Counted from the first letter of the stretch, positions 2 to 52,358 are shown. The stretch: DNA of 64,000 nucleotides from a virus (IMGVR_UViG_3300031992_000028), one strand, 5' to 3'. The notes: generated by a model not told the origin, from the sequence alone. A program made the numbers and translations.

Positions 2-3000
2 GAATTTTTATGCCCATCAAATATAAATAAACTTCTTAATACTGAATATAAATTTTTAGATTATGTAGAAAGTGTTGGTTATTTAGGTGGTTTTATAAAC
101 ACTGGTTTTAAACCAAATCAAAATAGTGGCATTGAAATTCAATTTGCTAATACATCAAACTCAAATAATCATTCAAAAATTTGTGGCGGTGGTGGTGAGT
201 CATACCAAGACAGAGCATTTGAAATCTATACATGAAATGAACAATTACAATTTAATTATGGCAACAGTGCCTTATATTTAGGAAGTATGCCAGAGCCTGG
301 AACAATTATTACGGCTTGACAAAAGAAGACCGAAGCTGGTTATTCTTATTCTAATGGCTCACAAACATATACAGGAACTCATACAGCTAATTCTTTTACA
401 GCACCAAGAGAGCTATGCATTGGAACATTAAATCGTACTGCCTCTGGCTCTTGGGCCAATTTTACTACAACGAATACTGGGTCTACAAAGTTTTATTATT
501 GTAAAATTTGGGACAATGATAAATTAATTAGACATTATTTACCAGCAAAAAGAGTTTGTGATGATAAAGTTGGCTTCTTTGATTTAGTAAATAATATATT
601 TGTTGATGTAGTTGGCACTTTTATAGAGCCTGGAATTCCAGATGAGTACAAAGAAGTTGAATATTTGCAGTCTTCTGGAACACAATATATTAATACTCTT
701 ATTACTTCATCAGAAAAAATTGGGCTTGTAGTTGAAGCTGCAGTAACAGCTAATAGTACTGGTGAATTACAAAATTATATTTTTGGATCACAGCAAGCAG
801 ACGCAAATATAAATTGATATTCTTACTGCACTGTAAAACTAACTACTAATGGCGTGGTTGGTTGTGAATGAAGCGATGATGGACGAGCTACTTCTGACCA
901 TAATATTAGTTATCAGGTCTCTACAAATACTAAATATAAAATTAGTTTTAATTTTATTGCTGGCGAATTTTGAATTGGAAATAATAAACTAAAAACTGGT
1001 ATCACCCTATGTGATTGTAAATTTCCACTTTATTTATTTGGAGATAATTTACTCGGTAATTTCGCTCGCAGTGGCTCAATTAGAATATATCAAGCTAAAA
1101 TTTATAATGATATGGCCTTAGTACGTGATTTTGTTCCATGCATTAGAAAATCAGATAATAAGCCGGGAATGTATGACCGAATAACACAAGCATTTTTTAC
1201 TAATAGTGGCACAGGTGAATTTACTTTTCCAGCATCAAATAATAATGATTATGTCTCAAAAAATATAAAAATTAATTTTAGACCAATTCCTTATATTGAA
1301 AGTACTAGAATACAATATATTGATACTGGTATTGAAATAACTGACAAACTTGAGACACAGCTAGACTTTGCCTTTAGCTCATATGATAATAATGAAAGAT
1401 ATGTTTTTGGATTTGATAGCCCTACAGTAATTGGAATGATTAATGGAGCTGGCCGTATCTATGAATTTGGAGAAGAAAGGTATAGTTGGCCGCTTGATAC
1501 TAATAGACATACTGCAATAGTTGGTAAAAATATAGTTTTTGATGGTAGTGTTATTGATGAAAATATTGAAGGCTGAGCAACAGGAAAAAATGGCTTTTTG
1601 TTTTGTGCTAACACAGTTAATGGGGTCAACTATTTTTCAAATACAAAATTATATAGTTGTAAAATTTGAAATGATGGCACATTAGTAAGAGACTTTATTC
1701 CTGTAATCAATACACAAACAAATAGACCAGGTCTTTATGATCTTGTAAATCATAACTTCTATGCTAATCAAGGTACAGGTGAATTTAATGCTCCAGAATT
1801 ATATTTGCCAATAGAATATATTGAATCTTGCAAAAACTATCGAGTTAAACCATATATAGACACTGGTATTTCAGCAGCTGATACAATTACAAGGATAGAA
1901 GCGCACATAAATAAAACTAATAATGGTGGATCAACTACTGATAATGGTATTTTATTTGGGCTATTTGATGCCCCTGCATTATTTTACTTAGACCAAGATA
2001 TTAATACAACAACACATAGAATGAATATTGATTATACCAATAGTAGTGCCTTACAATTAACTTCTTCTATAGCTAATGCCTCTGGAGATAAAGTCTTTGT
2101 TTATACACGCTCTGGTAACACACATAGCTTTTCTGTAAATAATGAAACACCAAGTACTGGTAGTAGAGCAACAAATTGAAGCTCAACTAAACATCATTAT
2201 CTATTTGCTTATAACAATAACGGCACGGCCGGCTGCTTTTATAACTGCAAATTATATAGTTTTAAAATTTGAGTAAATAATATAATTGCGCGAGACTTTG
2301 TTCCAGTTTTAAGAATTTATGATGGTAAACCTGGATTATTTGATAAAGTCGAGAATAAATTTTATACTAATGCTGGAACCGGTGAATTTAGATATGCTAA
2401 TTCTTTTGGGGGTGGAAGAAATAGCTGAGATAATTACTCTGGCTCATATTCATCTGACTCAGATGATTGAACATTTTCTAAGTATGAACCTGGCGGCTGA
2501 GAATGAGATGAATGTAGTGAAGACTTCCCATTAGCAGGAACAGGCATACTAAGTACAACTGCATACTCCAAATGTGCTGTAAGTATTTCAGCAGGTTGCT
2601 CACGAATGATGGTTGGGGTTGCTCCAATTGGCTACTCCTTCAGATATGAGCAAGGCTATTTCTTATACCCAGATAGGAATAATCGACTATGCTTATACTT
2701 ACGAGGCACAAATTCTACACAATTATTGCCAGAAGATCACAAAACATGAACTTCTGGCGATAGACTTAGAGTTTCGTATGATGGTGAAGCTATTTACTTC
2801 TATCATAATGATGTACAGGTTTATAAATTATCATCTGGAATAATAAAAGGTCCAGATAATAAAATGTTTATTAATATTACTGACTGGAATGAGTCTGACC
2901 CACCTGGCGGATGTTTTAATATTGCTTTTAATGCCTTACCTGATTTATCAAATAAAAAAGTAATTTATTGAGATGCTAGTGGTTATGAAAATCCTATTTA

Positions 3001-4360
3001 TGAAAATGATGCCGATGAACTAACTGAATGCGAAACTTTATCTGTTACTACAAGTGGAGATACTGCACTTGGAAATCAAAGCTTAATATTTGATGGAATG
3101 AATCACCTTAAAAGTAGCTTAGATAGCTCATTTATTACAGATAAACTTACAACAAATATTTGAGTTTATAAAAATGATTGAAGCAATACTGTTAGTGAAC
3201 AAATTATAGCTTGCTCAAAAGATAATACAACTGGAGCAACCCATAATGGTTGAAACTTTGCTATTGGTTCCAATTCAGCAAGCGAAACAGGAACTGGCAC
3301 ATATTTAAAATTTGTGGTTGATGCAGGAGCCGCTCATGCACGAGCAGCAAAACTAAACGTATCTAGCTTAACATCAGGTTGACATATGTTTACAGGAACA
3401 TATGATTCTTTTATGGGCACAGGTCATACAACAGGAAATTCATATGTTAAATTATATATTGATGGAAATCTTGCCGATACTGATGTAATATCAAGCGCTC
3501 CAGCAATGCCAATTAACTATGTTTCATCACATAATGTAACTATTGGTGCTAGATATAATAGAACTAATGATACAGTTGCTGATTACTTTAATGGAAAAAT
3601 TGCAGATATTAAAATTTGGGCAACAACATTAAGTGATGAAGATATTGAAAACTTATATAAAGTAAAAGCAGCTATAGATGAAAATTACACTTTAACTTGT
3701 AATACATATATAGATGCAATAGAAAATACTTTTACACCAACTAATATAACCTTTAACAGTCTTAATACTAATGAAGCTATTCCAGGAATATACTATGATG
3801 TGCAACGAACTTCTAATTATCAATATAGTGGAATAAGTATTGATAATAGCAGTAACTTTATAATTAATCATTGATATAAACTTAGTTTTAATATTAAAAG
3901 TGCAACAGATAACAAAGCTGCCGATTATGTTAGAGGACACTGCATGTACGGGTTTGATAATGATAATTCTGAAATCTTCATTGATGGACATTATATTGGG
4001 AAAAAATGACACATTGGTAGCGCATTGATTCCAGATCAACGAACTGAATGGGATGCTGTCGGTGCTTCTTGACGCCATTATGATGTATATCTAAAATGTA
4101 CCAAAAATACTGACCCAAATGGTGCAAACCTTTATATTCAGCCAGACAGGTCAGTTAGTGGTACAGGAAGACATGTAATAATAACAAATATTACACTTAC
4201 TGACTATGGACTAAATAAACCAGAAGTGCTAAATACACATGCAATAGATTTTGTTAATAAGGCATCAGTAATAAAAGGTAATAATATATTAGAAAATTCT
4301 AGCTTAGTTGGTGTCAGTAAAAATAATACAATCTTAGTAAATAACATTCATGAAGATTAA
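2..4360 (+). CDS. Large tail/receptor-binding-type protein (5' truncated; TGA=Trp) with ~4 tandem beta-rich repeats plus a LamG/ConA-like domain
   Basis: Frame 2 has no TAA/TAG until 4358-4360. About 22 in-frame TGA. Repeat consensus YIES..QYIDTG...KIW....LVRDF.P...G.YD....FY.N.GTGEF. LamG motifs G(W)HMFTGTY and FNGKIADIKIW..LS.EDIENLY. Confidence 0.8.
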
Positions 4361-4367
4361 TCACTAT

Positions 4368-4402
4368 AAAAGACTTAGCTATTTAAAAAGCTAAGTCTTT
4401 TT
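4368..4402 (+). terminator. Intrinsic terminator
   Basis: AAAAGACTTAGCT-loop-AGCTAAGTCTTTT hairpin with T-run after the stop. Confidence 0.85.
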
Positions 4403-4433
4403 ATCTAGCTATTATATTCTTTTAATTATGAAC

Positions 4434-4447
4434 TTTTGCTAAATTAT
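4434..4447 (+). promoter_or_regulatory. Putative late promoter (TGCTAAATT)
   Basis: TTTTGCTAAATTAT; the motif recurs in about 12 intergenic positions. Confidence 0.7.
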
Positions 4448-9504: not shown

Positions 9505-9516
9505 TTTGCTAAATTT
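9505..9516 (+). promoter_or_regulatory. Putative late promoter
   Basis: TTTGCTAAATTT. Confidence 0.6.
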
Positions 9517-9519
9517 AAT

Positions 9520-9573
9520 GGTCGGTCAAATAGCGCCATCACCTTCGCCACAGCTAAGTTGACCGGCTTTTTT
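9520..9573 (+). ncRNA. Putative hairpin sRNA with GCCATCACCTT loop
   Basis: GTCGGTCAA...TTGACCGGC stem plus T-run directly after a late-promoter motif; no ORF. Confidence 0.5.
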
Positions 9574-9606
9574 ATTTTAACTGAGAAGCTACTGAGAAGT
9601 GTTTCA

Positions 9607-9619
9607 TTTGCTAAATTAT
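9607..9619 (+). promoter_or_regulatory. Putative late promoter
   Basis: TTTGCTAAATTAT ahead of a TGA-rich operon. Confidence 0.7.
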
Positions 9620-12345: not shown

Positions 12346-12410
12346 CTGCTAAATTAAGTAACATAAATCATTTGCATGGTTTGAAAGGTGTCGAAAGGCA
12401 TCTTTTTTTA
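12346..12410 (+). ncRNA. Late-promoter motif, short ORF-less stretch and terminator
   Basis: CTGCTAAATTAA, then ~30 nt, then an AAAGGTGTC-GAAA-GGCATCTTTTTT hairpin. Confidence 0.35.
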
Positions 12411-12438: not shown

Positions 12439-12969
12439 ATGTCCACAGAAGAATTAATTGAAAAGGCAGTAGAAAATTTAAATAGGGTTAAGCAATTAAA
12501 CCTAAAGATAACAGGCATATTATTACAGCTTGGCAATGATAATAATTTTTCTGTATCAATATTAGATAATGAAAGTGACTGCACATTTGACACTATTATT
12601 GATGAACAGGTTACTACTAAACAGCTGTTACCAGATGACCCTGTAAGTCTATCACCAGATACTATTATAATGCTGAGAATAGCTAAGCGTATATTTGAAG
12701 CTTATAAAAAATTTAAATCTAAACTTGTTGATGATAGCTTAACACTTAATGCTAACCAAACAATTAGTTCAATACAATGGGGTAATACTACTTATGATAT
12801 TGGAGTTAATGGTAGAAGCTTAACTGCAACATTTGATGAAGTAGATGAGCTAAAAAATAAGCTTAATAATTTACAAACTGAAAAAGATCACTTGGAACAA
12901 GAATTACAAAGCACAAAAGCAATAGTTGATTTACTCCTTCAACGATGCCAAGATAAAGGAATTCTATAA
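12439..12969 (+). CDS. LRIAY-family paralog 7 with C-terminal coiled coil
   Basis: Follows TTGTATAAT; KAVENLNRVKQL...MLRIAKRIF; no TGA. Confidence 0.75.
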   Translation: MSTEELIEKAVENLNRVKQLNLKITGILLQLGNDNNFSVSILDNESDCTFDTIIDEQVTTKQLLPDDPVSLSPDTIIMLRIAKRIFEAYKKFKSKLVDDSLTLNANQTISSIQWGNTTYDIGVNGRSLTATFDEVDELKNKLNNLQTEKDHLEQELQSTKAIVDLLLQRCQDKGIL

Positions 12970-13040
12970 ATTAGAAATTTGTAAAAAAACTATTTACAAG
13001 TTTCTTTTTTTATAGTATAATATAAATAGAGGTAATGAAT

Positions 13041-13436
13041 ATGTTTAGAAAAGCTACTAAGACAGAATTTAGAAATAAACAAGGCAAGTTAGCCAAAGAT
13101 ATTATTGACTGGCTTTTAAAGAAAGAAATCTTTGATGATACTTTTATTTATGTAAATGGCAAACGTTATGGAACCTATGATGGTGAAGGCCATTATAATT
13201 ATGGAACTAACTCTTGGGACAAAGTTTATGTAGAAGATAATAAAGACCCTAAAGACTACTTTGAATATGCAGGAAAGATTTTATCTATGTCTTTTGAGGG
13301 ACCACTTTATGATTTATTAAACTATGGCTTTGAGTGGAATAGCCATGCTGAAGATGAACTTAGAAATATCTTTCATAAATATGGCTATTACTTTGAACTT
13401 GGAAATGCTTGGAACTTAACAGCAGTGGAGGAATAA
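13041..13436 (+). CDS. Hypothetical early protein
   Basis: TTTACA..TATAAT promoter; GAGGT RBS. Confidence 0.75.
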   Translation: MFRKATKTEFRNKQGKLAKDIIDWLLKKEIFDDTFIYVNGKRYGTYDGEGHYNYGTNSWDKVYVEDNKDPKDYFEYAGKILSMSFEGPLYDLLNYGFEWNSHAEDELRNIFHKYGYYFELGNAWNLTAVEE

Positions 13437-13438
13437 TT

Positions 13439-13927
13439 ATGTTTCCAGATTTATTAGAAGCTCTTGGGGCTTATACTGATTACTATATGGACGACACAGA
13501 CCCAGAGGTTAAAGACGCATTTAAAAAAATACTTAAAGATATGTGGCATGAGAAAGCTATAAAGTATGTAGATGATACCGGTGAGATTACTGGTGAAGCT
13601 CGTGCTATTTTAGAAAAGGCTTTACAATTACTTCATAAAAATAAAAACATTCATCTCAGATTTGATTTGAATTCTGAAAATTGCAGCATGCGTCATATGC
13701 AAGACCCAAGAAGTTTAAGTTCACAAATAACTTTACAATTTGAAGTAAAAGAAGGCTTAGCTAAACAATCTATTAAAGCTACCTTTAATAAAGAAGTTTT
13801 TACTGCTAATTGGTTACCAACTGATGATTATGCTAGTATCTCAAATAAAATTAAAGCCTTAGATACTACAACCTATCGTGGTATTAGACTTGCTTATATT
13901 ATCTATCAAGCAATTAAAAATAATTAA
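13439..13927 (+). CDS. LRIAY-family paralog 8
   Basis: GGAGG RBS; KALQLLHKNKNI...GIRLAYIIY. Confidence 0.75.
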   Translation: MFPDLLEALGAYTDYYMDDTDPEVKDAFKKILKDMWHEKAIKYVDDTGEITGEARAILEKALQLLHKNKNIHLRFDLNSENCSMRHMQDPRSLSSQITLQFEVKEGLAKQSIKATFNKEVFTANWLPTDDYASISNKIKALDTTTYRGIRLAYIIYQAIKNN

Positions 13928-13991
13928 TTTTATTATTTACATACACATTTATTTGTGATATAATATTAATAGAAAGTTGAGGTTAACAACT

Positions 13992-14657: not shown

Positions 14658-14659
14658 TT

Positions 14660-37666: not shown

Positions 37667-37668
37667 GT

Positions 37669-37860: not shown

Positions 37861-37876
37861 GGGGTAAGAAATAGTT

Positions 37877-39435: not shown

Positions 39436-39449
39436 TTTTGCTAAATTAT
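39436..39449 (+). promoter_or_regulatory. Putative late promoter
   Basis: TTTTGCTAAATTAT 5 nt before the ATG (leaderless). Confidence 0.7.
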
Positions 39450-39454
39450 ACAGT

Positions 39455-41191
39455 ATGAACATATTAGAAGCTTATAATATTCTTAATACTTTATATGAAG
39501 ATTATTCTGATGGCTATCTTGAAATTGCAAAGCCAATTAATTTAAAAGATTGCAGAGAGATAGTTTCAGATGTTTTAGATATTCGTAATGAATTAGAAGC
39601 CAGCGCTTGTTTAGACTATAATGGAGTATTAACCAGAGTTGCAGCAAAAGTACTTATTTTTAGAGACGGCTTAGAAGGAAAAGAAGTATTGCTTAGACTT
39701 TGAAGAACTGCCGTTTATTTACCTGGCGGCGGTTTTGATCTTAAAAAAGATAATTATAATATAGTCAATACCGTTAAACGTGAAGTAGAAGAAGAAATAA
39801 ACTTAGTCATAGATAATATTAGACCAACTAGCTTTAACTATTGAAGATATGATAATAAAGCTTGAGTTAGCAACCATGTAGAAAAAGAAGAAGATAGATG
39901 GCTAGGTTATTATAATTATTTATTTACCGCTGATTATAAAACCACTGGAGACAATGATTTGCCTGAAGAAGCTGGAAGATACAGATGGCATAAAGTTTCT
40001 GATATTTTAGCTAGGCCAGACACAAAAGAACTTGCTTGCATTAAAAAAGCTATCATTGAGAATGGTTATGCAGATTTAAATGAGGGTTTATTGACTGAAG
40101 GCAAATCAGTCGGTTCAGTGAGCTATTTTGTTCATGATACTAAAGGACAACCAGCTATTACTGGCTTAGCCAAGATTTTAACTTCAGAAACTATTTTGGC
40201 TTCAACAGAAAGTGATAGTTCAAAGTATATTTCTACGTCAAGAGATTTAATGTCGCATGCTGGATCAACTTGAAAATGTGGTCTTATTTTAGATGGAGAC
40301 AAGATTTCAAATAGATATAAAGTCAATCCAATAAATAAAAATAGTATGATTTATTTTGGGCTGACAGCTGATAGCACAAAACAATTACAGTTACGAGCTA
40401 TTTCTAAATATGTTGCAGATGATAACCCAGAGTTATGCTTTTATTGCATTGATTTAAATGGCAGTCGTTTCTTTACTGAAATTTCAGAACAAACATATAA
40501 TATCTTTAAAGATATTATGTTAGCTTTTAATGCCCAACTTGCCGTTCAAAATCAAGAACCTGGAAAGGGTGGATTAGATAAATATAAAGGGAGAACAAAC
40601 AGCGATGTTAAAAAATATTCTGATCAGCATCCTGTTAGATATAATCGTCATATAATGCCTGATAAGCTTCCAGCAGACAAACGAGATCATGCCTGACATT
40701 GTGTTGAGTCATGTGGGTACAATGTTGAAAACTCTAACCTAGTTTTAAAGTTATCTGAATTGGGCAATTATAAAGATTTAATTTTTGAAAAACATGGTAT
40801 TGATATAACTACAGCTGAATTTTTCAGACAATTTGCAGGACAATATGTAGATGAATCAGAAGAACGTATTGTTGCAAAATTAATTAAAGATGTAGACAAA
40901 CTTGGAGAAGTAGTAGAGGGAGATACTGATATTTATGGTTTAAATATTTCCGGGTGTATTCAGGCAATTTTAATTAATATTAAGCATAAACCGGCCTTTG
41001 AAAATACTAACAGTGAAAAGCTTCCAAAATTAGCTGATGATAACGGAAATATTACAACTAAGGTTGATAATATTCCAAATATTAGACAGATAGCTAAAAT
41101 AATAAAAGACTATGCAAAACGTCATTCTATTCCAATAATTTTTTGAAATAATACTACTACAAATAATGATATACTGAAACAAGTAAACTAA
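39455..41191 (+). CDS. 578-aa Nudix hydrolase fused to an ADP-ribosyltransferase-like domain (TGA=Trp)
   Basis: Six TGA join four same-frame fragments. Nudix box PGGG...TVKREVEEEINL. Then YFVH...YISTSR...LDGDKISNRYKV...ESEER. Confidence 0.7.
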
Positions 41192-42005: not shown

Positions 42006-42019
42006 TTTTGCTAAATTAT
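42006..42019 (+). promoter_or_regulatory. Putative late promoter
   Basis: TTTTGCTAAATTAT. Confidence 0.7.
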
Positions 42020-42050
42020 TTGATAGATCAGCAAAAAGGAGCTTAAATAT

Positions 42051-43280
42051 ATGGCAAAACCAAAAGAACAATATAAGAAGCAAGATAATGAAATGTCCAC
42101 TTGATTTTCTGATGCCGATTCTTCTTATCCTACTATTAATTTAAATCAATTTAAGTATTCTGATGGATCTACTATTGCTGGTATTACAAAAATTTGTCCT
42201 TGACAGCGTGAAAGAGACGATATTGCAGAATTTTATAATGATGGAACAGTAGACTCTTTTAAGCCGGTTTATGCAGGCGATTCACCTAAGTTTACTGAAT
42301 GAGTAAAGGTAGATACTGCTGGGACATATAAGTTATATGTTAAAGATAATAAATTACTCCTAAGCAATAAAAAGACTACAAATGCAGTAGACTTTAGAGA
42401 TGGAGTAATTCCAAATAGAATGGTTTTGTTCTTACAAGCTGGTGGTGGAGGCGGAGGAAGCTCTTCCGATGTTTTTGCTGCTGGTTGGTGTATTGGCGGT
42501 GCTAATGGCGGAGCAGGTGGTAGTGGTGCTGCTTTTGCAGTAGTGCTTAATACAGAATTACTAAAGGTTTCTGAATCTAATTATTTTGAGATTAAGGTTG
42601 GTGCAGGAGGAAAAGGTGGTAACTGGTTTGGCCACTCGTCTCAGGGTGCAATTGTTCTAGGAAATGGTGCTGCTTACGGTGATAGCGGTGCCGCTGGAGA
42701 AAGTAGTATATTGACTTTTGGTGATTCTAAAAATAAAACTGAGACTGAACTAATTGTAGCCACTGGCGGCGGTGCAGGTGGTCGTGCATCTGGATATAAT
42801 ACAGGTGGTCCAGGTGGTGGTGGCAATGTAACAAAGAAAACAGGTAGCGGAACATATTGATGGCCTTTACCTTGTACACAAGGTAGTACATTACATCAGT
42901 CTTGCTGACTTAATGGGGCTAGCGGTGGAACCTATCAGCATGCTGGAGGAAGTACAGCTGCGTATGTGGCACGTATAACTGATAATAGTAATTATTATAG
43001 TAGGTCTGGTATGTACTTTACTTTAGGAAACAAAAGTGGCGGTGCAGCTGGACAAGGTGAGGCTCCTGGCGGTGGTGCATCCTGATTTGCTAATGGAGGA
43101 GCGGGCGGTGGCGCTGCCTCATACGGCAATCATGGCTCACTTGGTTCTGGTGGAGGCGGCGGTCGTTTTACTTACGCTGGTCACTTTATTGGTATCTTTG
43201 TGATAGGTATGGCTATTGTTAGCTTAGCTATTCAAGGTGGCGGTAATGGCGGCGATGGCTGTCTTAGATTATATTATTAA
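42051..43280 (+). CDS. Glycine-rich virion/tail-associated protein (TGA=Trp)
   Basis: AAGGAG RBS; 6 TGA; AGGGGGG...GAGGSG...IKVGAGG.GG...GG.GGDGCLRLYY. Confidence 0.75.
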
Positions 43281-43375
43281 TAGATAAAAATAATGCCAAA
43301 AAAATTGGGAAAAATTCTCAATTTTTTATTTACTTTTAATATATAGAAGTGTATAATATAAATAGAGGATATATT

Positions 43376-44302
43376 ATGAAAAAATTAAAAATAGCTATAC
43401 TATCGGTATTAGTTGCCGCTATGTTGACTGCTTGTGGCATACAAAATACTGCAGATAGTACTGTAGATGATGCAGCTATTGTTGAAGAAATCTTAGATGA
43501 AGATGACGATAGCCATAGATTTCCAATGTCTGAAATCTTAAATTTCTATAGGCAAGCACCGGTTGATTGTATTGCTATTCCAGATTATAGTAAAATAAAT
43601 AGAGATACTGTTTATGAAGCAAATGATAAATTTGAAAATTATTATTTAGTGAAAGCAGTATTATCACCATTAGCAGATATGAATGTCTATAAAGATATGC
43701 TTATTTATAATGGTTGGGAATTTATTCAAACTGATGAAGATGGTATTGATACTTATCAATTTGAAAATACTGTTGCATTTTTGGATATTGGAAAATATGC
43801 TGGCAATGTTGGACTATCTTTCTATTATATTCCAGAAGAACCAAGTCCATATTATAAGGCAAAAGCAGATATATTAGAGAAAACTGTAAGTATGTTAGTT
43901 GACTTTGATGATGTTAACTGGAGGTCTTATGGAATGGGATATATTCAAATTCATGTTGGAGATGATGAGGATTTTAAGCTTAATTCTATGCCAGACCCTA
44001 CTGAGTTTCCAGATAATGCTAGCGAAGAGAAGCTCTCTCAAATCACAGCTGCTTTAGAAAGTAGATTATTACCAGAGTATTTAATTAAACGTAAAGAGCA
44101 TTTTTATACTGGCGATACTGATGTAGCATATTATTGGTCAAGGTATAAAGAACCAAAGCACTCAAATGTATTTGTATCACAATATTTAGATGAAAATGAA
44201 ACTATTTTGGTTCAAGTTGCCACATACTGCACAGGTGGGTATCTCTATGGTAGTGTTATCTTACTATTATTATCAGATTGCCCTCGTTGGGTTGAGAGCT
44301 AA
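43376..44302 (+). CDS. Lipoprotein
   Basis: MKKLK, hydrophobic core, LTAC lipobox. Confidence 0.8.
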   Translation: MKKLKIAILSVLVAAMLTACGIQNTADSTVDDAAIVEEILDEDDDSHRFPMSEILNFYRQAPVDCIAIPDYSKINRDTVYEANDKFENYYLVKAVLSPLADMNVYKDMLIYNGWEFIQTDEDGIDTYQFENTVAFLDIGKYAGNVGLSFYYIPEEPSPYYKAKADILEKTVSMLVDFDDVNWRSYGMGYIQIHVGDDEDFKLNSMPDPTEFPDNASEEKLSQITAALESRLLPEYLIKRKEHFYTGDTDVAYYWSRYKEPKHSNVFVSQYLDENETILVQVATYCTGGYLYGSVILLLLSDCPRWVES

Positions 44303-44355
44303 TATTTATTTAAATCAAGGTGCCATTAGGCATCTTTTTTATTGTATAATATAAT

Positions 44356-44733
44356 ATGACAGTAAAAGAAAGATTAATTAGATATTTTAATTTGGTGCGC
44401 AAGCAGAGTCAATTAACTGTAGATGAATATCATGAGATGCTTCATTTAGAAGAAGCACTTATTGATGATATTGATCAATTAGACTTATCAGATGACTTAC
44501 GAGAACTTCAACAAAAGTTTATTAATGCATCTATTGAATTAATGGCTGGTCCATATGCGATTATGGATACCGGAAATGGTTGGGATGCAATGTATGTTTT
44601 ATTAGAAAGTGCATTACCAAAATTAACTGGCAAAGAAAGAATGGCTATTGCAGATTTAATTGGCGGTAGAATTGCTGTTGGTGGCCCATATCCAAGTAGA
44701 AGAGAATACATTAAAAAATTCAGGAGAAAGTAA
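44356..44733 (+). CDS. Hypothetical protein (leaderless)
   Basis: Follows TTGTATAAT. Confidence 0.7.
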   Translation: MTVKERLIRYFNLVRKQSQLTVDEYHEMLHLEEALIDDIDQLDLSDDLRELQQKFINASIELMAGPYAIMDTGNGWDAMYVLLESALPKLTGKERMAIADLIGGRIAVGGPYPSRREYIKKFRRK

Positions 44734-44736
44734 AAT

Positions 44737-45372
44737 ATGATTAAACTAAGAGATTGGGATAGATTATATGTGCATACTTTTGACTGGGTTTTAAGAAGAA
44801 TGGAGCCTGATACTTTAGAATTTTATAAAGATACTGAGCAAGATTGGGTAGAATCAATTAAAGCATTTAATAAAGTTCAATTAGAGCTTTTTGATAAATA
44901 TGCTGTGACTTATAAGTCTGGCGATGGCTTTAAGAAGAAATGTGTTAAAGGTTTAGAATTAACTGCAGATCAATTATTTGAATTATTTCATAAACATTTA
45001 AATCTTTATACAAATCATACTATTAGATATTTTATTTTTCATTGGTGGAATGATTTAAGGTATTATATAGAAGGTGCACAACCAACACTAGATTGTGCAT
45101 TTGAATTATTTAAAGATGCTACAAAAGAAGAAATTGAACAAGCTAATAAAGATTTTGCTCATTATGAATATGACCATTACGGTGAAATTCAAAAATCTGA
45201 TCATACATTTAATAATGGTAGAGTATTAGAATATCGAGGCATTAGATTTCCTCTTGATGATCAATGGGGAGACGCTTGGTTTAAAAAGAAAAATGGTGAA
45301 ATTACACATTTTGAATTAGTTTGGGATTGGTGGTTTCCCATTGATGAGTGTTTAGATTTATATAATATTTAA
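44737..45372 (+). CDS. Hypothetical Trp-rich protein
   Basis: AGGAG RBS; about 10 Trp, all TGG. Confidence 0.75.
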   Translation: MIKLRDWDRLYVHTFDWVLRRMEPDTLEFYKDTEQDWVESIKAFNKVQLELFDKYAVTYKSGDGFKKKCVKGLELTADQLFELFHKHLNLYTNHTIRYFIFHWWNDLRYYIEGAQPTLDCAFELFKDATKEEIEQANKDFAHYEYDHYGEIQKSDHTFNNGRVLEYRGIRFPLDDQWGDAWFKKKNGEITHFELVWDWWFPIDECLDLYNI

Positions 45373-45381
45373 GGAGTATTT

Positions 45382-46008
45382 ATGGACGTTACAAAAACAA
45401 TGAAGTTGCCATTAAAGGATGTTTATCAATTACTTATCAGTGAGATGCGTTATGGCTATGGAAGAAATAATCATTTAATGCCAAGTTGTGGTTATGATAA
45501 GGTAAAAACTTTTGTCCCGCAAATGTATGAAGTTGATAAAGAATATGCTGTTTATACAATGAAGCAGCTTTGTGAAGAATGTATTTCAGATCAGCTTATG
45601 ATGAATTTCTACGATGGTGAAGATGATGAACATGGAAATCGTGCTGAAGCTATTGAGTTTATTAAATGGAGTATGCAATGGGTTCATCAACATGAAACAG
45701 ACCCAAGATATAAAGGTAGCACCTGGCTTCCATATAATCATGATTTATTTTTAGATAACTTAGCTAAGGATAATGAGCCAAGATATTTAGTTTATGAGCT
45801 TCGTGGTAAAAGTAAAAGAAAGAAATTAATTACAGTTGAACCAGTTAGTCAAAAGGAATATATTAATATAGTTTTTGATGGTATTGCTGAAGGTACATAT
45901 CGTAAAGAAGACCATAAACTTACTGAAAAGTATGGCGATAATAGAAGAAGTTATACATATCATATTTTATCGCCAGTTGAAAAAGATTTTTATGTTAAGC
46001 ATATATAG
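45382..46008 (+). CDS. Hypothetical protein
   Basis: AAGGAG RBS. Confidence 0.75.
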   Translation: MDVTKTMKLPLKDVYQLLISEMRYGYGRNNHLMPSCGYDKVKTFVPQMYEVDKEYAVYTMKQLCEECISDQLMMNFYDGEDDEHGNRAEAIEFIKWSMQWVHQHETDPRYKGSTWLPYNHDLFLDNLAKDNEPRYLVYELRGKSKRKKLITVEPVSQKEYINIVFDGIAEGTYRKEDHKLTEKYGDNRRSYTYHILSPVEKDFYVKHI

Positions 46009-46025
46009 AATAGAGGTAAGCTAAT

Positions 46026-46181
46026 ATGTATTATGCATGTTTTAGAATTAAAAAAGATCAAAAAGATAAAAATGAACCACAAAAGATTATTAAGAAGGCT
46101 TTTAATACTAGAGATGAGGCTAGAGACTTCCTTAATATTCATATGGACTTTGATAAATATGATCAATGCTGGACAGAATAA
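46026..46181 (+). CDS. Hypothetical protein (51 aa)
   Basis: GAGGT RBS. Confidence 0.6.
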   Translation: MYYACFRIKKDQKDKNEPQKIIKKAFNTRDEARDFLNIHMDFDKYDQCWTE

Positions 46182-46184
46182 ATC

Positions 46185-46661
46185 ATGAGTGCAAATATAG
46201 GTGATAATGTATACACACCGCCAGCAGTAGCAAAAAGAATAATTGATGAATTTGAGTTGTTTGGAACTGTGCTAGAGCCATTCCGTGGTAAGGGTGCATT
46301 TTATGATAATTATCCTAATTCTGTTAAAAAGCTTTGGTGTGAAATATCTAACGGAAGAGACTTTTTTGATTTTAATGAAAGAGTAGATTGGATTGTTTCA
46401 AATCCACCATATTCTATATTTAACAAAGTTTTAGCGCATAGCTTTGAATTAAGTGATAACATTGTTTATTTAATTCCAATTAACAAGTTAACAAGCTCGT
46501 TTACAAGAATTAAACAACTTGCAGATTGGGGAGGAATTCCAAAAGTGATTTTAATGTCACCAAAGAAAATTGGATTTCCATTTGGATTTGCAGTTGGTGC
46601 AGTTTATTTCAAAAAAGGTTACAAAGGCTTAACGGAATTTAAAATTTTAGAGGAGAATTAA
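46185..46661 (+). CDS. Small DNA amino-methyltransferase
   Basis: YTPP, LEPFRGKG, IVSNPPYS. Confidence 0.85.
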   Translation: MSANIGDNVYTPPAVAKRIIDEFELFGTVLEPFRGKGAFYDNYPNSVKKLWCEISNGRDFFDFNERVDWIVSNPPYSIFNKVLAHSFELSDNIVYLIPINKLTSSFTRIKQLADWGGIPKVILMSPKKIGFPFGFAVGAVYFKKGYKGLTEFKILEEN

Positions 46662-46663
46662 TT

Positions 46664-47041
46664 ATGAGAGATCCAAAAAGAATTGATGTTATTTTGCAAG
46701 AAATTAGTAATATTTGGCATAAATATCCAGATATGCGCCTAGGCCAATTAATTGGTAATGTATTAGAAGGAACAGCCTTATACTATGTAGAGGATAACGG
46801 TCTTATAGATGCTTTAAAAGATACTTATGATGGTCAAAATATTCCAGTTAATTTTGATCATGATGCTTATATTTTTGATTTAGTTAAAAGAGACCCTGGT
46901 GAGCTTGGTTTTATCACACAATCTAAAAACTATGAAGAATATGTTGCAACCTACCTTGATGCTGGCGGTAAAGCTGAAGATGCTACATATAATGAGCATG
47001 AATTTAATGCTTTAAAAGATTATTTTGGAGATGAAGAATAG
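46664..47041 (+). CDS. Phage hypothetical protein (MRDPKRI...W..YPD.RLGQL type)
   Basis: GAGGAG RBS; recognisable phage N-terminus. Confidence 0.75.
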   Translation: MRDPKRIDVILQEISNIWHKYPDMRLGQLIGNVLEGTALYYVEDNGLIDALKDTYDGQNIPVNFDHDAYIFDLVKRDPGELGFITQSKNYEEYVATYLDAGGKAEDATYNEHEFNALKDYFGDEE

Positions 47042-47053: not shown

Positions 47054-47129
47054 CTGCTAAATTAAATACAAAACAGGCCGTTTAGACCAAATCTAGGCGG
47101 CTTTATTTTATTTAAAATTGGCTAAATTT
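47054..47129 (+). promoter_or_regulatory. Two late-type motifs around a hairpin, upstream of nrdD
   Basis: CTGCTAAATTAA; GCCGTTTAGA..TCTAGGCGGC hairpin; TTGGCTAAATTT. Confidence 0.55.
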
Positions 47130-47183
47130 AGTACACAAATAAATTGTATATTATTAAGAAGAAAGGATGTTTTTTTATTCACT

Positions 47184-49427
47184 ATGATAGTTATTAAGCG
47201 TGATGGTAAAAAAGTAGATTTTGATGTCTACAAGATTAAAAAAGCTCTTATCGGAGCAAATAGTCGTTCTCAAGAAATGTCTGATGACGATATTGAAAGA
47301 ATTACTGAAATTATCTTAAATAAATGTAATAAAGCAACTGGTGATTTAAAAGTTGAAGATATCCAAGATATTGTTGAAGACACTTTATTAAAAAGTAAGT
47401 TTAATAGAACAGCTAAGACATATATTCTTTATAGAGACAAAAGAACAAGAATTAGACAAGGTAAATCTAAACTTTTAAAAGAAGTTGGTGATAAGCTTAT
47501 GGGCGTTCATATTGTCAACCAAAATGCTAATGTCGATGAACGTTCATTTGGTGGTCGTAAGGGTGAAGCAGACAGTGTTTTAACTAAACAATATGCTTTA
47601 GATTATTGCATGTCTGAAAAGTCTAGAAATAATCATTTAAATAATGAAATTTATATTCATGATTTAGATTCATATGCTGTTGGTATGCACAACTGCTTAT
47701 CAATTCCCTTTGATGATTTATTGGCCAAAGGTTTTAATACAAGACAAACCGATGTTAGGCCAGCTGCTTCAATTAATACTGCTTTCCAATTAGTTGCTGT
47801 TATATTCCAACTTCAAAGCTTACAACAATTTGGTGGTGTTTCAGCAACCCACTTAGACTGGACAATGGTTCCTTATGTTAGAAAAAGTTTTCTAAAGCAT
47901 TATATTTTTGAGTATTTAAAAGATACTGAAGAATTCTATACTCTTAATCTTGAATCATTAGCTGATGAGGAAATCGATGAATGGGTTAAGGAAAACAAAC
48001 ATAAATATCTAGATATGTGGCAATGTAAAGAAGAAGACTTTTATATTGGTAATGAAGGCTTAGACAAGCATTTTTATCAAAAAGCATTATTTGAAACACG
48101 TAGGGAATTAATGCAAGCAGTTGAAGGCATGTATCATAACTTAAATACACTTCAATCAAGAAGTGGTAATCAACTTCCATTTACTTCAATTAACTATGGA
48201 ACATGCACTTTACCTGAAGGTAGAATGGTCATTAGAGCTTTATTAGAAGGAAGTTTGAAAGGTGTTGGAAAACTTCATAGAACTCCAATCTTCCCATGTG
48301 GTATTTTCCAATATATGAAGGGTGTAAATGATAAGCCAGGAACTCCGAATTATGATTTATATAAATTAGCTTTAAAATCAACAGCAAAACGTTTGTATCC
48401 AAACTACGCTAATGTAGACTGGAGCAACAATGCTGGCTATGACAGAAACGATCCTAAGACTTATTTCTCAACTATGGGCTGTAGAACTGCAAATGGTGCT
48501 GATATTAATGCAGAACCGGGTGTAAATCCACAAACCAAAGACGGTCGTGGAAATATCTGCCCAGTTACAATTATCATGCCAACATTAGCTATGGAAGCGG
48601 GCAGAGATGTTGAGAAATTCATGGCTTTACTTAATACAAAAATACATGAAGCCAAAGATATGTTAATTGAAAGATATGAATATATCTGCAGCCAATGTGC
48701 AGATTCCGCTAAGTTCATGTATGAGAATGGAACTATGATGGGATATAAACCAGAAGAGGGCGTTAGAAGCGCCATGAAGCACGGAACTCTTGTTATTGGA
48801 CAAATTGCTTTAGCTGAGACTTTAGAGCTTCTAATCGGCAAAAATCAATGCACACCAGAAGGTATGGAATTAGCCAAGAGAATTGAGCAATTATTCAAAG
48901 ATAGATGTGCTGAGTTTAAACAAAGATACCACTTAAACTTCGGTGTTTATTATACTCCAGCTGAAAATTTATGCTATACTGCAATGAAAAAATTTAAAGA
49001 AAAATACGGTATAATAAAGAATGTATCAGACCGTGAATATTTTACAAATAGTATTCATGTTCCAGTTTGGGAAAAAGTATCAGCTTTTGAAAAAATTGAT
49101 ATTGAATCTCAATTAACAGGATATTCAAATGCTGGTTGCATTACTTATGTCGAATTAAGTTCAGCTGCAACTGGAAACTTAGACGCATTAGAATCATTGG
49201 TTAACTATGCAATGGATCATGACATTCCATATTTCGCAGTCAACATTCCAAACGATACTTGCTTAGAGTGTGGTTATACTGGTGAATTCAACGATCACTG
49301 TCCAGAATGTGGAAGTCACAACATTCAGCAATTACGCCGCGTTACTGGTTATTTGACCGGAAATTATAAAACAGCATTTAACTACGGAAAACAAAAAGAA
49401 GTAGAAGATAGGGTGAAACATATTTAG
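47184..49427 (+). CDS. nrdD: Anaerobic (class III) ribonucleoside-triphosphate reductase
   Basis: ATP-cone VIKRDG, YIHDLD..HNC, TPAE, CxxC...CxxC, RRVTGYL glycyl-radical loop. Confidence 0.97.
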   Translation: MIVIKRDGKKVDFDVYKIKKALIGANSRSQEMSDDDIERITEIILNKCNKATGDLKVEDIQDIVEDTLLKSKFNRTAKTYILYRDKRTRIRQGKSKLLKEVGDKLMGVHIVNQNANVDERSFGGRKGEADSVLTKQYALDYCMSEKSRNNHLNNEIYIHDLDSYAVGMHNCLSIPFDDLLAKGFNTRQTDVRPAASINTAFQLVAVIFQLQSLQQFGGVSATHLDWTMVPYVRKSFLKHYIFEYLKDTEEFYTLNLESLADEEIDEWVKENKHKYLDMWQCKEEDFYIGNEGLDKHFYQKALFETRRELMQAVEGMYHNLNTLQSRSGNQLPFTSINYGTCTLPEGRMVIRALLEGSLKGVGKLHRTPIFPCGIFQYMKGVNDKPGTPNYDLYKLALKSTAKRLYPNYANVDWSNNAGYDRNDPKTYFSTMGCRTANGADINAEPGVNPQTKDGRGNICPVTIIMPTLAMEAGRDVEKFMALLNTKIHEAKDMLIERYEYICSQCADSAKFMYENGTMMGYKPEEGVRSAMKHGTLVIGQIALAETLELLIGKNQCTPEGMELAKRIEQLFKDRCAEFKQRYHLNFGVYYTPAENLCYTAMKKFKEKYGIIKNVSDREYFTNSIHVPVWEKVSAFEKIDIESQLTGYSNAGCITYVELSSAATGNLDALESLVNYAMDHDIPYFAVNIPNDTCLECGYTGEFNDHCPECGSHNIQQLRRVTGYLTGNYKTAFNYGKQKEVEDRVKHI

Positions 49428-49428
49428 T

Positions 49429-50118
49429 ATGAAATTTAAAAAATTACCTTTTACAGAACATGCACAATTTGTATTTAAATCTATTCTTGCTGCAGTATTA
49501 ATTGCTATGGCAGGTGGAATATTTTTACTTTGTACTAATACTGGAACAATTCAAGATCCATTTCTTGCAAAAGTGGTTGGTTCGTTCTTATTTTCTTTAG
49601 GCTTATGTGTAGTCATTGCATTACAAGCAAATTTATATACAGGTAAAATTGGGTATGTTAATAGTAAACATTTAGCCATTAGAGCTTTTTGGATGCTATT
49701 TATTAACTTAGGTATTGCATTTTTAATCGGTTGGCTGTTTAGAGGTGTAAATACCTCTATTCCATCTTTTGGCCAAGGAAGTCCTTTTGGGCCAGATAGT
49801 ACTAGATTGAGCAAAGCTTGGTATCAGTTTTTATTTGATGGATTTGGCTGTGGTGTATTAATTTATCTTGCAGTGGAATTATATAGAAAAACAAGAAGCT
49901 TCCTACCTGTAATTATGTGCGTAATGGCATTTATACTGAGTGGTGCTGAACACTGCATAGCAGATGCATTTTATCTTGGTGCCAGTCAGTTTAGCTGGGA
50001 AGCTCTTGGTGACTTAGGATTAGCTATTATTGGAAACACTTTTGGAAGTATTGCAATACATTGGTTACAAGTAGGAGCAGAATACTTAAATGAACTACCT
50101 AACAATATACAAAGATAG
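49429..50118 (+). CDS. Formate/nitrite transporter (FNT, FocA-like)
   Basis: About 6 TM segments; G..LFSLGL, NLYTG, FILSGAEHCIAD, IIGNTFG. Confidence 0.9.
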   Translation: MKFKKLPFTEHAQFVFKSILAAVLIAMAGGIFLLCTNTGTIQDPFLAKVVGSFLFSLGLCVVIALQANLYTGKIGYVNSKHLAIRAFWMLFINLGIAFLIGWLFRGVNTSIPSFGQGSPFGPDSTRLSKAWYQFLFDGFGCGVLIYLAVELYRKTRSFLPVIMCVMAFILSGAEHCIADAFYLGASQFSWEALGDLGLAIIGNTFGSIAIHWLQVGAEYLNELPNNIQR

Positions 50119-50617
50119 CATAAGCGATGGTCCTGGTGTAAGGGTTTCAGTTTATTTTGCCGGATGTTTGCCAAATAAGTGTGGAAATAAGAATTGTCCT
50201 GGTTGTCACAATCCAGAAGCTCAAAAGTTTACAGCAGGTGAAGAATATACTGAAGAAACAAAGAATTATATTCTAGGTCTTTGTAGAAATCCATATATTG
50301 CTGGTTTGACTCTCTGTGGCGGTGAGCCATACGATCAAGATGAAAATCAATTAATTGAGCTTTTGAAGGCTTTTCGTAAGCAAAACCCAGATAAAAATGT
50401 TTGAATTTATACAGGTTATGAATTTGAACAGATTAAAAATAGAGAGCTAACTAAGCAGGCTGATGTTGCAGTTGTTGGGCCATTCATCTTAGAACAAAGG
50501 GATATTTCTGACGCTAATAGATGGCGTGGAAGCAGAAATCAACGTGTGTTAGACTTGCCAAAATCTTTAGAAAATGGCAAAATAATCAAGCTAGAAAATA
50601 TTCCAAATAATGAATAA
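50090..50617 (+). CDS. nrdG: Class III RNR activase (one TGA=Trp)
   Basis: DGPGVRVSVYFAGC...CPGCHNP, GGEP, KNV(TGA)IYTGY matching the conserved W.YTGY, RGSRNQRV. Confidence 0.93.
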
Positions 50618-50641: not shown

Positions 50642-50655
50642 TTTTGCTAAATTAA
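50642..50655 (+). promoter_or_regulatory. Putative late promoter
   Basis: TTTTGCTAAATTAA. Confidence 0.65.
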
Positions 50656-50682
50656 ATGCTGTTGACTTGGGAGGTTGACTGC

Positions 50683-50922
50683 ATGAACTGCTGAAGTAAA
50701 TATTCATATTATGACTATGAAGAAGCTTATTTTAAATTGCAATACTATAAATGCAAAGAAATAGGCATTTATATTTTATCTAAACAAAAAGATGAATATT
50801 CAAAAAAACTATTAAAAAGGCTTGAAAAGTTTGAATATGACTGGTTGCATCCAGATACTAAAGATGCTAAGCTTCTTTGAGATATAAAGGTCTGATTGAT
50901 GGTAAATTGCAATTATTTTTAA
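50683..50922 (+). CDS. Hypothetical protein (79 aa, 3 TGA=Trp)
   Basis: GGAGG RBS; open only in code 4. Confidence 0.65.
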
Positions 50923-50994
50923 ATAATTGTATATTATACTAGGGTTCCCGGACGGTCCATAGCGATCCAGCCCGTTAGAGGAGAAAGTAAAAAT

Positions 50995-51234
50995 ATGGGA
51001 AAAGAACTTAAAAGCATTACAGCTAAAGAAGCTAGAAAAATAGCAGATGAATCTGAATTTACTCTTAAGCACATCTACAAAATGATTAGAGACTGCGCAG
51101 AAGAAAATAGTACTTCTCTTGAATGGTGTCTATGTGCTATAAGTAAACCAGCATTAGATAGTATTAAAGCGGCTCTAAAAAAAGATGGTTTCAATATCGA
51201 ATGCACAGATGATTCATTAACAATTAAGTGGTAA
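50995..51234 (+). CDS. Hypothetical protein
   Basis: GAGGAG RBS; ITAKEARK...L.IKW. Confidence 0.75.
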   Translation: MGKELKSITAKEARKIADESEFTLKHIYKMIRDCAEENSTSLEWCLCAISKPALDSIKAALKKDGFNIECTDDSLTIKW

Positions 51235-51311
51235 TTTAAAGCAAAAATTTCAGAGCTGAACATTAGTTTGGCTCTTTTTATTTATGTTATAAATACTGTA
51301 TAATATATAGT

Positions 51312-52358
51312 ATGAGTGATAAAAAAAATTTAGATTTAGCTAAGTTAAAGGCAGATGATGAATTCTATACTTCTTTTGCTGATATTGTCACAGAATTATC
51401 ACATTGAATAAGTAAATTAAAAGATAAAAAAATTATTTGTCCATGTGATTTTATTCCGACTAAGAAAATAAGCTCTATAACAATTGATTTTAGCCAGGGT
51501 AAATATTTTATTAACTCAGTTAAAAAGAAAGCTTCAGATACGCCGTATTTTAATTTATTTGAGGACTTTACAGTGTCTGAACCGGCAACTGAAATTTCTG
51601 AAAGTCAATTAAGAGAAATTTTAGCTAATCAAGAAGTAGTAAATTTTGTTAATTATTTATGGGCAGTTGGTAAGGAAGCTAGGGTCAAATCTATTACAGC
51701 ATCGGGTTATAATATTAAGTCTGGCCTTGGTATTAGTTTTGATGAAGTAGATTATAGTCAATATGATTTAGTTATTACAAATCCACCATTTAGTTTGTAT
51801 AGTAGCTTTATGGAATGCATTGGTGATATTGATAAAATTATTATCGCACCATTTATGAATAGAGTTGCTCCATGTGTTGCTATTCCGCTTATGGAAAGAA
51901 AAGCTTATTTAGGTTATGGAAGACATTTAGCAATGAATTTCAACAATCCAACTGGTGGTAAAGGTAAAAAGGTTGCAGTTGATTGGATTGTTTCTTGGCC
52001 TGATGCACAAGATGAAGTAGATAAATTGTCCTGTAAAACTGGTATTAGATATGACATTTTGTCCTATAAAGACATGCCATATATGACAATGAAAGATGGA
52101 ACAAAGCCAATTAAAATTAATTCAGTTCAACAAATTCCAGATGACTATAATGGCTATATGTTTACATCAGTTGCTGTTTTAGATAAATTAAGCTATAATG
52201 AGTTTGATTGGATTTGCACAGGTTGTAAACGATATTTTAATAAAGAGCATCCAGAATTAAATCCATTTGCACATAAAGTTTCAAATGAAATGATTGGCTA
52301 TGGAACAGAAAATTCATGCTTTCATGGAATTCTATTTAAAAGAAAGCGTATAATATAG
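51312..52358 (+). CDS. EcoRI-methylase-like adenine methyltransferase (one TGA=Trp)
   Basis: DDEFYT...DI..EL.H(TGA 51405)...KKIICPCD; VITNPPFS; IPDDYNG.M. Confidence 0.8.

Follow-up and report, generated by a model that had tools for sequence, protein, structure and literature searches.

Stop-codon recoding concentrated in late genes is known from gut phages, and here we examine a stretch of phage DNA in which it can be followed from one transcription unit to the next. The stretch, 64,000 nucleotides (nt) of the virus IMGVR_UViG_3300031992_000028 (henceforth the window), appears to read TGA as tryptophan (Trp), and most of its TGA-bearing genes lie behind one promoter-like motif. The closest account, by Borges et al., reportedly came out in journal form in Nat Microbiol in 2022. 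Its preprint describes the TGA-recoded Agate, Jade and Sapphire phages, which have late-gene recoding, standard-code hosts and close standard-code relatives (Borges et al., bioRxiv 10.1101/2021.08.26.457843); an earlier, sequence-only reading of the window was right to call late-gene recoding in gut phages known, and TGA clades are among the published ones. In the same account the TGA-recoded clades come from cattle, recoded modules are scattered across large genomes, suppressor tRNAs are found in only 35% of code-4 phages, code 25 phages also exist, and the word 'promoter' is absent (Borges et al., 10.1101/2021.08.26.457843).

The window shares much with these clades. TGA stands for Trp, recoded structural or late genes lie in several modules of a large genome, early and replication genes keep the standard code, there are standard-code relatives, the habitat is the ruminant gut, a suppressor tRNA is often undetectable, and a homing endonuclease is recoded (here in a sister genome, G001). 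With Agate the agreement is in habitat (cattle and sheep), code and genome style only. With the genome incomplete and a suppressor tRNA found in only 35% of members, a missing phage decoder is compatible with membership in the family. Unlike in the published account, an explicit promoter motif here narrows the recoded modules down to single transcription units, and a full-text literature search found no paper linking a late promoter motif to recoding. The crAss-like and Lak phages, recoded at TAG or TGA, also have a stop reassigned block-wise in their late genes, with standard-code hosts (Yutin et al. 2021, PMC7886860; Peters et al. 2022, PMC9523058). The window differs from them in its Gram-positive-type sigma-A promoters and strong Shine-Dalgarno (SD) sites, which are not Bacteroidota signals, and in lacking a phage RNA polymerase signature; most of those phages, moreover, recode another stop. 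In Mycoplasma and Spiroplasma, where UGA is likewise Trp (code 4), it is used genome-wide, with a tRNA-Trp(UCA) and without release factor 2 (RF2), whereas here UGA serves as Trp in only some of the genome, and the searches showed no tRNA(UCA).

For transcription the models are T4, whose late promoters have a single TATAAATA element and no -35 and use the gp55 sigma factor, and SPO1 with its sigma cascade. The late-class motif of the window, TGCTAAATT, resembles the T4 element in being a short A/T-rich, -10-like box without a -35 that lies on the coding strand, ahead of virion genes and after terminators, and as in T4 and SPO1 there is an early gene for a candidate sigma-like protein (29911-30810). 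Unlike in T4, the element has a different sequence, the recognition factor is putative, and three copies are followed by a terminator-like hairpin, reminiscent of lambda PR'/tR'. In sum, the partition of TGA described here is real and statistically overwhelming, and the window is a well-resolved example of a known phenomenon, not a new system.

The source is a large sheep-rumen phage with an estimated genome size of ~230 kb. Sheep gut metagenome runs contain near-identical DNA, and megablast of the window against GenBank phages gave no match. A 42-mer taken from the end of the window had no exact match in collections of viral and metagenome contigs. Two sequences, L036 and L054, are from the same phage; L036 is 99.99% identical to window positions 52337-64000 and extends 9.5 kb beyond the window, where its contig terminates; a contig of 137,581 bp on which the NrdG protein is recorded terminates there too. 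G001, a sister genome in IMG/VR of 146.5 kb and with an estimated completeness of 64%, matches window 28.7-63.5 kb at ~87% identity, and its contig and that of the window may together span most of the estimated 230-kb genome. More distant IMG/VR relatives are G002 (161 kb) and G006 (180.8 kb, complete, with terminal repeats). Both have marker proteins and the TGCTAAATT motif in common with the window, and their large open reading frames (ORFs) lack TGA, i.e., they are in standard code; a 2072-residue protein of G002, for example, has 47 TGG and no TGA. Every credible gene of the window is on the + strand, and its G+C content (GC) is ~32%.

When genes are called again with TGA as a sense codon (table 4), fragments fuse into long ORFs at 2-4360 (22 TGA), 5444-8695 (3 TGA), 39455-41191 (6 TGA) and 42051-43280 (6 TGA). 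In total there are 60 sense TGA in ~20 genes, within frames that are open for up to 1452 codons. The homologs name the residue. Codon 105 of NrdG (TGA 50402), in the motif W.YTGYE, falls on a column that is Trp in 25 of 25 aligned homologs; TGA 7595, in the 'GQLHGTWGG' of a DUF4314 protein, is matched by Trp in 19 of 19; and five of the six TGA of a NUDIX fusion lie on Trp-dominated columns (14 homologs, identity down to 22%). The conserved Trp that the sequence-only reading had recognized in NrdG (W.YTGY) and the DUF4314-like protein (H.W) is therefore invariant among homologs, and the KIW that it had pointed out in the internal repeats of the tail fibre is present as described, with TGG at 509 and TGA at 1667 and 2270. 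In orthologs of at least 60% identity, window and G001 codons pair TGA with TGA six times, with TGG five times and with another codon twice. The density of Trp codons (TGA plus TGG per 1000) is 14.5-19.3 in late genes and 15.3-17.0 in early and middle ones; counting TGG only, late-class units would have 7.4, half of the combined figure. Opposite TGA, G002 has Trp at 2 of 9 sites, and at 4 of 12 when compared with G001; its late genes are too diverged, and we take this comparison as weak support only.

On these alignments and codon exchanges TGA codes for Trp in this phage, as had been proposed. The codons show no +4 context bias and are evenly distributed along genes, which looks like full reassignment and not like site-specific read-through. 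That TGA should instead mean glycine (Gly; phages with code 25 do exist) or selenocysteine, or mark frameshifts or pseudogenes, has next to no probability: such readings are ruled out by homolog columns that hold Trp, not Gly or cysteine, by the exchange of TGA and TGG with G001, and by the 60 sites in long open frames.

Repeat and pattern scans of the sequence yielded three classes of predicted promoters, and their names early (E), middle (M) and late (L) denote candidate timing classes. The E motif is an A-rich stretch followed by TTTAC[AT]-N17-TGnTATAAT, with 29 copies, most of them at 22.5-37 kb. The M motif is TGTATAAT(ATAAT) behind a T-run, mostly without a -35. The L motif, TGCTAAATT, has 10 exact copies where 2.9 are expected, all of them intergenic and on the + strand. 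Each of 100 genes in a curated list was assigned to the nearest upstream promoter. L units have 31 internal TGA (and four more within 11 codons of the end) against 37 TGG, M units 3 internal against 79, and E units none against 110; the tail fibre, whose promoter lies off the window, has 22 against 6. Tabulated in this way the partition held, with p = 6e-18 for codons, 2e-8 for genes and 3e-7 for transcription units (Fisher, L vs. E+M), and the multi-TGA genes are mostly behind TGCTAAATT, as the sequence-only reading had it. Its hand count of about 70 TGG and no internal TGA in the early block is also borne out (72 and none in 22589-38083). Along the window the presence of TGA flips more than 10 times, tracking promoter type: sigma70-type (E/M) islands at 12.4-15.9 and 17.4-19 kb are TGA-free within the late region, and L units at 39.4 and 42.0 kb have six TGA each within the middle region.

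Base composition had been dismissed as an explanation, rightly so. The use of A-ending codons for lysine, glutamate, glutamine and Leu2 is 0.77-0.88 in every class; composition would therefore predict ~80% TGA everywhere and fails to explain the partition. A more refined argument is that the partition is a by-product of AT-biased drift from TGG to TGA in weakly constrained late and accessory genes, TGA being purged from genes that are conserved or highly expressed. The gene lists have some of this flavour, with tail fibres, small orphans and a homing endonuclease rich in TGA and with NrdD, DNA polymerase and ligase free of it; M units are leaky, and extra TGA in G001 middle genes, at window TGG, suggest ongoing spread. 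We nevertheless consider drift improbable as the cause, given that the early genes are fast-evolving orphans without Pfam families and yet have no internal TGA in 110 Trp codons, and that a zero in 51 early genes at ~80% A-ending bias is unexplained by drift alone. Moreover, TGA occupies the invariant catalytic-fold Trp of the conserved NrdG and DUF4314.

The same counts bear on the view that the host itself has code 4, as a Mollicutes-like gut bacterium would, the phage sharing the code of its host without any switch. A host among the Bacillota or Mycoplasmatota would agree with the GC of 32%, the promoters of Gram-positive type and the strong SD sites; metagenome-assembled genomes labelled 'Bacilli' or 'Mycoplasmatota' supply some of the closest NrdD relatives; and no decoder is encoded in the available phage sequence. 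In such a host, however, 80 early and middle genes with 189 TGG and 3 internal TGA would be hard to reconcile with the ~80% A-ending bias, as would the four early and middle genes that have a terminal TGA with a back-up stop; the same promoters are found in G002 and G006, close relatives that keep to the standard code, and NrdD relatives are taxonomically mixed. A code-4 host is thus very unlikely. In the four genes just mentioned, all of sigma70 type, the TGA (15903, 27200, 30808 and 46186) stands 0-5 codons before TAA or TAG; the pattern had been noticed before, in three genes and with TAA. The TGA at 30808 is kept in G001; as to its being the true stop, relatives of 299 residues fit either reading, and standard-code relatives are too diverged at the C-terminus.

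The sister genome repeats the pattern. The replication genes of G001 (DnaB, DNA polymerase, UvsX, clamp loader, SbcC) are TGA-free, and its tail and virion-size genes are recoded. One of its proteins, of 2457 residues, has 11 TGA. A GIY-YIG homing endonuclease directly behind TGCTAAATT (121018-121626; L043:1018-1623) has 8 TGA and 1 TGG. This gene lies upstream of the DNA polymerase region and is the most heavily recoded one seen. With automatic assignment the TGA fraction in G001 is 0.32 for L and 0.12 for sigma70-type units (p = 2e-9), and the same comparison in G002 gives 0.03 and 0.02. The compatibility of the host-type sigma70 class with the standard code is supported. The units of the window, with predicted promoters throughout, are as follows (coordinates, strand, feature).

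2..4360, +: 3' part of a tail-fibre gene with LamG (Pfam Laminin_G_3, E-value 2.7e-11), 22 TGA and 6 TGG; promoter upstream of the window
4437..4445, +: L motif TGCTAAATT, ahead of a Peptidase_S74-like gene of 140 residues (4492-4914) without a Trp codon
5400..5408, +: L motif, ahead of 5444-8695 (1083 residues, 3 TGA and 9 TGG; DUF4314 TGA at 7595)
9507..9617, +: two L motifs (9507 and 9609), the first followed by a hairpin and T-run
9635-12345, +: cluster of six genes behind L 9609, 11 TGA and 5 TGG
12347..12355, +: L motif right after the stop of 12007-12345; a terminator (12383-12406) and an M promoter (12424) come next
12439..15914, +: sigma70-type island with M 12424 and E 13016 and 13959, no internal TGA and 16 TGG
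within 12439..15914, +: island genes for RNA ligase and nucleoside deoxyribosyltransferase; TGA 15903 is two codons before TAA
16042..17292, +: L motif 16042 and three genes (16070-17292), 5 TGA and 3 TGG
20348..22395, +: Zn-ribbon gene (TGA 20372) and SNF2 helicase (TGA 20818), flanked by inverted 8-nt tandem arrays
22564..38083, +: early block with ~25 E promoters and 37 genes, most of them orphans; TGG occurs 72 times, internal TGA never
27200 and 30808, +: terminal TGA of the early block, the first adjoining TAA, the second five codons before TAA
29911..30810, +: candidate divergent sigma factor, early, 299 residues, ending in a TGA kept in G001
39439..41191, +: L motif 39439 (ATG 7 nt on) and NUDIX fusion 39455-41191, 6 TGA and 2 TGG
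42009..43280, +: L motif 42009 and a Gly-rich gene of 409 residues (42051-43280), 6 TGA and 3 TGG
43352..47041, +: E (43352) and M (44345) units, no sense TGA and 23 TGG
46033-46188, +: gene ending in a TGA that overlaps the next ATG
47055..50617, +: L motif 47055 (hairpin and T-run after it), NrdD (0 TGA, 5 TGG), FocA-like gene (0 TGA, 5 TGG) and NrdG
50402, +: TGA on the invariant Trp of NrdG, within the 47055..50617 unit
50645..51234, +: L motif 50645 and two small genes, 3 TGA and 3 TGG; all three TGA are kept in G001
51299..52358, +: M-type promoter and leaderless EcoRI-like adenine methylase, TGA 51405
52349..63999, +: M and E units with DUF5662, radical SAM, peptide deformylase, DNA ligase and CCA-adding enzyme, no TGA and ~70 TGG

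The reading that we hold to be quite probable is that code 4 applies to part of this genome only, distributed by E, M and L unit classes, that the host uses the standard code, and that UGA decoding gates the production of TGA-bearing proteins. E units, readable in the standard code, would be expressed from host sigma-A promoters and their proteins made at once. The host would terminate at UGA, and the TGA-bearing proteins (tail fibres, NrdG, methylase, NUDIX and others) would stay incomplete until UGA is read as Trp. L units, in which about half of the Trp codons are TGA, would probably be read with a phage sigma factor or by a polymerase that the phage has modified. Genetic code and transcription programme would then reinforce one another, the recoding having presumably arisen in a lineage already possessing the promoter cascade. 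We infer the standard code of the host and the phage-driven switch of UGA decoding; for the former, the TGA-free early class and the sigma-A and SD signals are indirect support.

The L motif fits such a history. Pooled from the window, G001 and G002, it has 57 coding-strand copies against 2 on the opposite strand, with the consensus TGCTAAATTwwnTGA; the TGA at +12 to +14 is conserved, there is no -35, and columns -40 to -1 show only T/A richness and no conserved base. Split into TGn + TAAATT, the core resembles an extended -10 box. G002 has 29 coding-strand motifs and a single one on the opposite strand, and the units that they precede include those for portal, head protease and major head; in the complete, standard-code G006 there are 22 on one strand and 4 on the other. 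Because these standard-code genomes carry it ahead of virion genes, TGCTAAATT is the virion or late promoter-like element of the lineage and would predate the recoding. Assembled contigs of a sheep metatranscriptome match L, M and E genes alike, and transcript starts and levels are not readable from contigs.

At three copies of TGCTAAATT (9507-9590, 12347-12406 and 47055-47115) a hairpin and T-run lie within 25-70 nt downstream. These either give very short RNAs or imply late read-through of terminators, as at lambda PR'/tR' with Q. In many genes, mainly of M class, the ATG is only 7-11 nt past the TATAAT box and there is no SD site (4962-4978, 12424-12441, 17390-17405, 17877-17893, 23207-23221, 35405-35419, 41240-41253, 44345-44358, 51299-51314, 52349-52362 and 57895-57909), which suggests an unusually large share of leaderless mRNAs. 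At the L site 39439 the ATG is likewise 7 nt downstream.

As to the factor that might recognize the L motif, the candidate is the early gene 29911-30810. Its product matches no Pfam family, Sigma70_r2 and Sigma70_r4 included, even at an E-value of 1 or less. An AlphaFold model, however, with a predicted local distance difference test score (pLDDT) of 77, has only sigma factors among its top 50 structural matches (Foldseek, VIA-align). The N-terminal sigma-2 domain is matched over 90-107 residues with a root-mean-square deviation of 2.6-3.5 A and a Z score of 7-8.7, a range common for helical models. The protein has ~120 relatives, most of exactly 299 residues. It may be a phage sigma factor, which would fit a phage sigma cascade.

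Several observations weigh against so orderly a scheme, beginning with three TGA of the window that lie outside the L class (20372, 20818 and 51405). The methylase gene (51312-52358), which is leaderless and behind an M promoter, has TGA 51405 as codon 32; the codon is kept in G001, where the gene has a second one. Two TGA lie in the Zn-ribbon/SNF2 module (20.3-22.4 kb), to which no clear promoter is assigned. An M promoter 44 bases past the window end heads a unit with 6 TGA in four genes, conserved in G001, and two M genes with TGG in the window have G001 orthologs with TGA. The claim that middle genes avoid TGA thus stands for the window totals (3 against 79) but not for the methylase, the unit just past the window and the two G001 genes. 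The L motif, for its part, also precedes TGA-free genes, namely NrdD (747 codons, 5 TGG), the FocA-like gene and four small ones (4492, 8856, 10384 and 50995), and it also drives genes of nucleotide metabolism (NrdD/G, NUDIX), for which 'late' is maybe too narrow a label.

Since non-recoded relatives and TGA-free window genes use TGCTAAATT equally, the motif is better described as a predicted mark of late transcription, not of recoding as such. The statement that a promoter motif marks the recoded class can be kept insofar as recoded codons are almost only in the L class, but the motif also heads NrdD and occurs in standard-code relatives. What the classes show is a gradient: E is strictly TGA-free, M is mostly free, and L is rich. 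A switch, if any, is better placed between early and middle/late expression than at the late promoter. It would probably act by the time of DNA replication, before or during which it would be required because NrdG and the DNA methylase need UGA decoding.

The search for the decoder adds to the difficulties. No tRNA(UCA) was detected in the window, in L036 or in G001-G004 by ARAGORN, the Rfam tRNA model and a custom anticodon-loop scan. Release factor and tryptophanyl-tRNA synthetase (TrpRS) genes were absent from the window and L036, and RF-1/PCRF-type release factor and TrpRS families from G001 to G004. The check suggested by the sequence-only reading, a search for these three kinds of gene, was therefore negative in the window, L036 and the sister G001. 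The window and the next 9.5 kb are without tRNA genes of any kind, and neither the window nor L036 has an Rfam match. G001, on the other hand, has 38 tRNAs, in arrays behind E/M-type promoters, with Trp(CCA) included and none with UCA, and it has no group I intron able to hide a split tRNA.

These negatives raise the possibility that an ordinary tRNA-Trp(CCA), present in extra copies, reads UGA once RF2 has been disabled or outcompeted, a slow process, so that TGA would be kept from early and abundant genes. We rate this as unlikely. In its favour, UCA is lacking even in 146.5 kb of G001 with its 38 tRNAs, tRNA-Trp(CCA) is found in all relatives, suppressor tRNAs are known in only 35% of code-4 phages (Borges et al., 10.1101/2021.08.26.457843), and TGA is missing from NrdD, the FocA-like gene and a number of L genes. 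It is weakened by the incomplete state of the genome, whose contig ends where the sister genome has tRNA arrays, and by the equal presence of tRNA-Trp(CCA) in the standard-code G002 and G006. There is also no candidate RF2 inhibitor (an ArfA-like lead failed), and for near-cognate decoding it is much that about half of the late Trp codons are TGA without context bias. In broader terms, it is conceivable, but doubtful, that the phage converts UGA to Trp without itself encoding a tRNA(UCA), a release factor or a TrpRS, through an undescribed route in which RF2 is neutralized and extra or modified tRNA-Trp(CCA) is supplied, or in which the decoder is non-canonical.

The failed lead was ORF 23219-23392, considered as ArfA/BrfA-like and rejected; it has no Pfam or PDB sequence match, and DUF7230 scored below threshold only (E-value 3.7e-4). 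The ORF is early, leaderless and basic, has 57 residues, and ends in FRNRKKYNRKIKH. Within the G001 tRNA arrays (loci L007 and L027) there are three non-canonical tRNA-like genes, at 45677-45764, 47549-47660 and 48045-48118. One, of 88 nt, has a 28-nt insert in the anticodon arm, one has a 6-nt loop, and the third, of 112 nt, has an 8-nt anticodon loop and a 42-nt variable arm. None has UCA at a plausible anticodon position, and none has a counterpart among the tRNAs of G002 or G006.

As to the host, the promoters of sigma-A type and the GGAGG sites suggest a member of the Bacillota. A 391-residue marker protein found no relative in 185,579 species genomes, and the relatives of NrdD are mixed (Bacilli, Clostridia, Erysipelotrichia and Prevotella).

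The window also has features that are worth recording in their own right. Its annotated genes comprise tail-fibre proteins (LamG, Peptidase_S74), RNA ligase, nucleoside deoxyribosyltransferase, SNF2 helicase, HNH endonuclease, the NUDIX fusion, NrdD, FocA-like channel, NrdG, EcoRI-like methylase, peptide deformylase, DNA ligase and CCA-adding enzyme; the window lacks a terminase, and a lysis cassette was not seen in it either. Between NrdD and NrdG lies a gene of the formate/nitrite-transporter family (49429-50118; PF01226, E-value 2.6e-19). The phage may import or retain formate, because formate is the reductant of class III ribonucleotide reductase. NrdG gave no sequence match to solved structures.

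A gene-free region of ~1.4 kb (18955-20330) has a GC of 0.39, short repeats (GTACGTTTTC, CCCGTTTT) and palindromes (GTGTGCGCAAGCACAC), and may be a replication origin or a genome end. Tandem arrays of an 8-nt unit (TTTAATAA-like), inverted with respect to one another (20106-20179 and 22455-22532), bracket the Zn-ribbon/SNF2 module, which also hosts two of the three out-of-class TGA. At 55515-56574, three consecutive genes have a common N-terminal motif of ~20 codons (…RNG.FETNSSS.HSLV) and form part of a duplicated gene set between an HD-type gene and a radical SAM gene.

Past the window, L036 has at 17696-19960 a fusion of 754 residues that joins polynucleotide kinase (AAA_33), metallophosphatase and T4 Rnl1-type RNA ligase. 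Together with the CCA-adding enzyme, a second RNA ligase and a YqeY-domain protein, it amounts to a full tRNA-repair kit. L036 has in addition two non-coding stretches (14594-15030 and 20566-21176, i.e., 2.3-2.7 and 8.2-8.8 kb past the window) behind M, E and L promoters. The second, which reaches the contig end and has no Rfam match, contains a CT(A/G)T(A/G)CTTATTTC-like box four times, and a similar box is found upstream of a degenerate tRNA-like hit in G001 (62216-62280).

In closing, the published hypothesis that recoding gates late protein synthesis rests on maps of gene function, whereas here each unit is assigned to one of three motifs. The window brings its own internal controls, with sigma70-type islands within late regions, late units within middle regions, and standard-code relatives that have the same late promoter. 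What it adds is a promoter map at the level of units, a late promoter common to standard-code relatives, and the question of the UGA decoder. In annotation, promoter class could guide mixed-code gene calling in such phages. Should reassignment without a dedicated decoder prove true, the three-tier promoter map would make the timing of the switch directly testable. The window thus offers a compact system for testing the gating hypothesis and the onset of UGA decoding.

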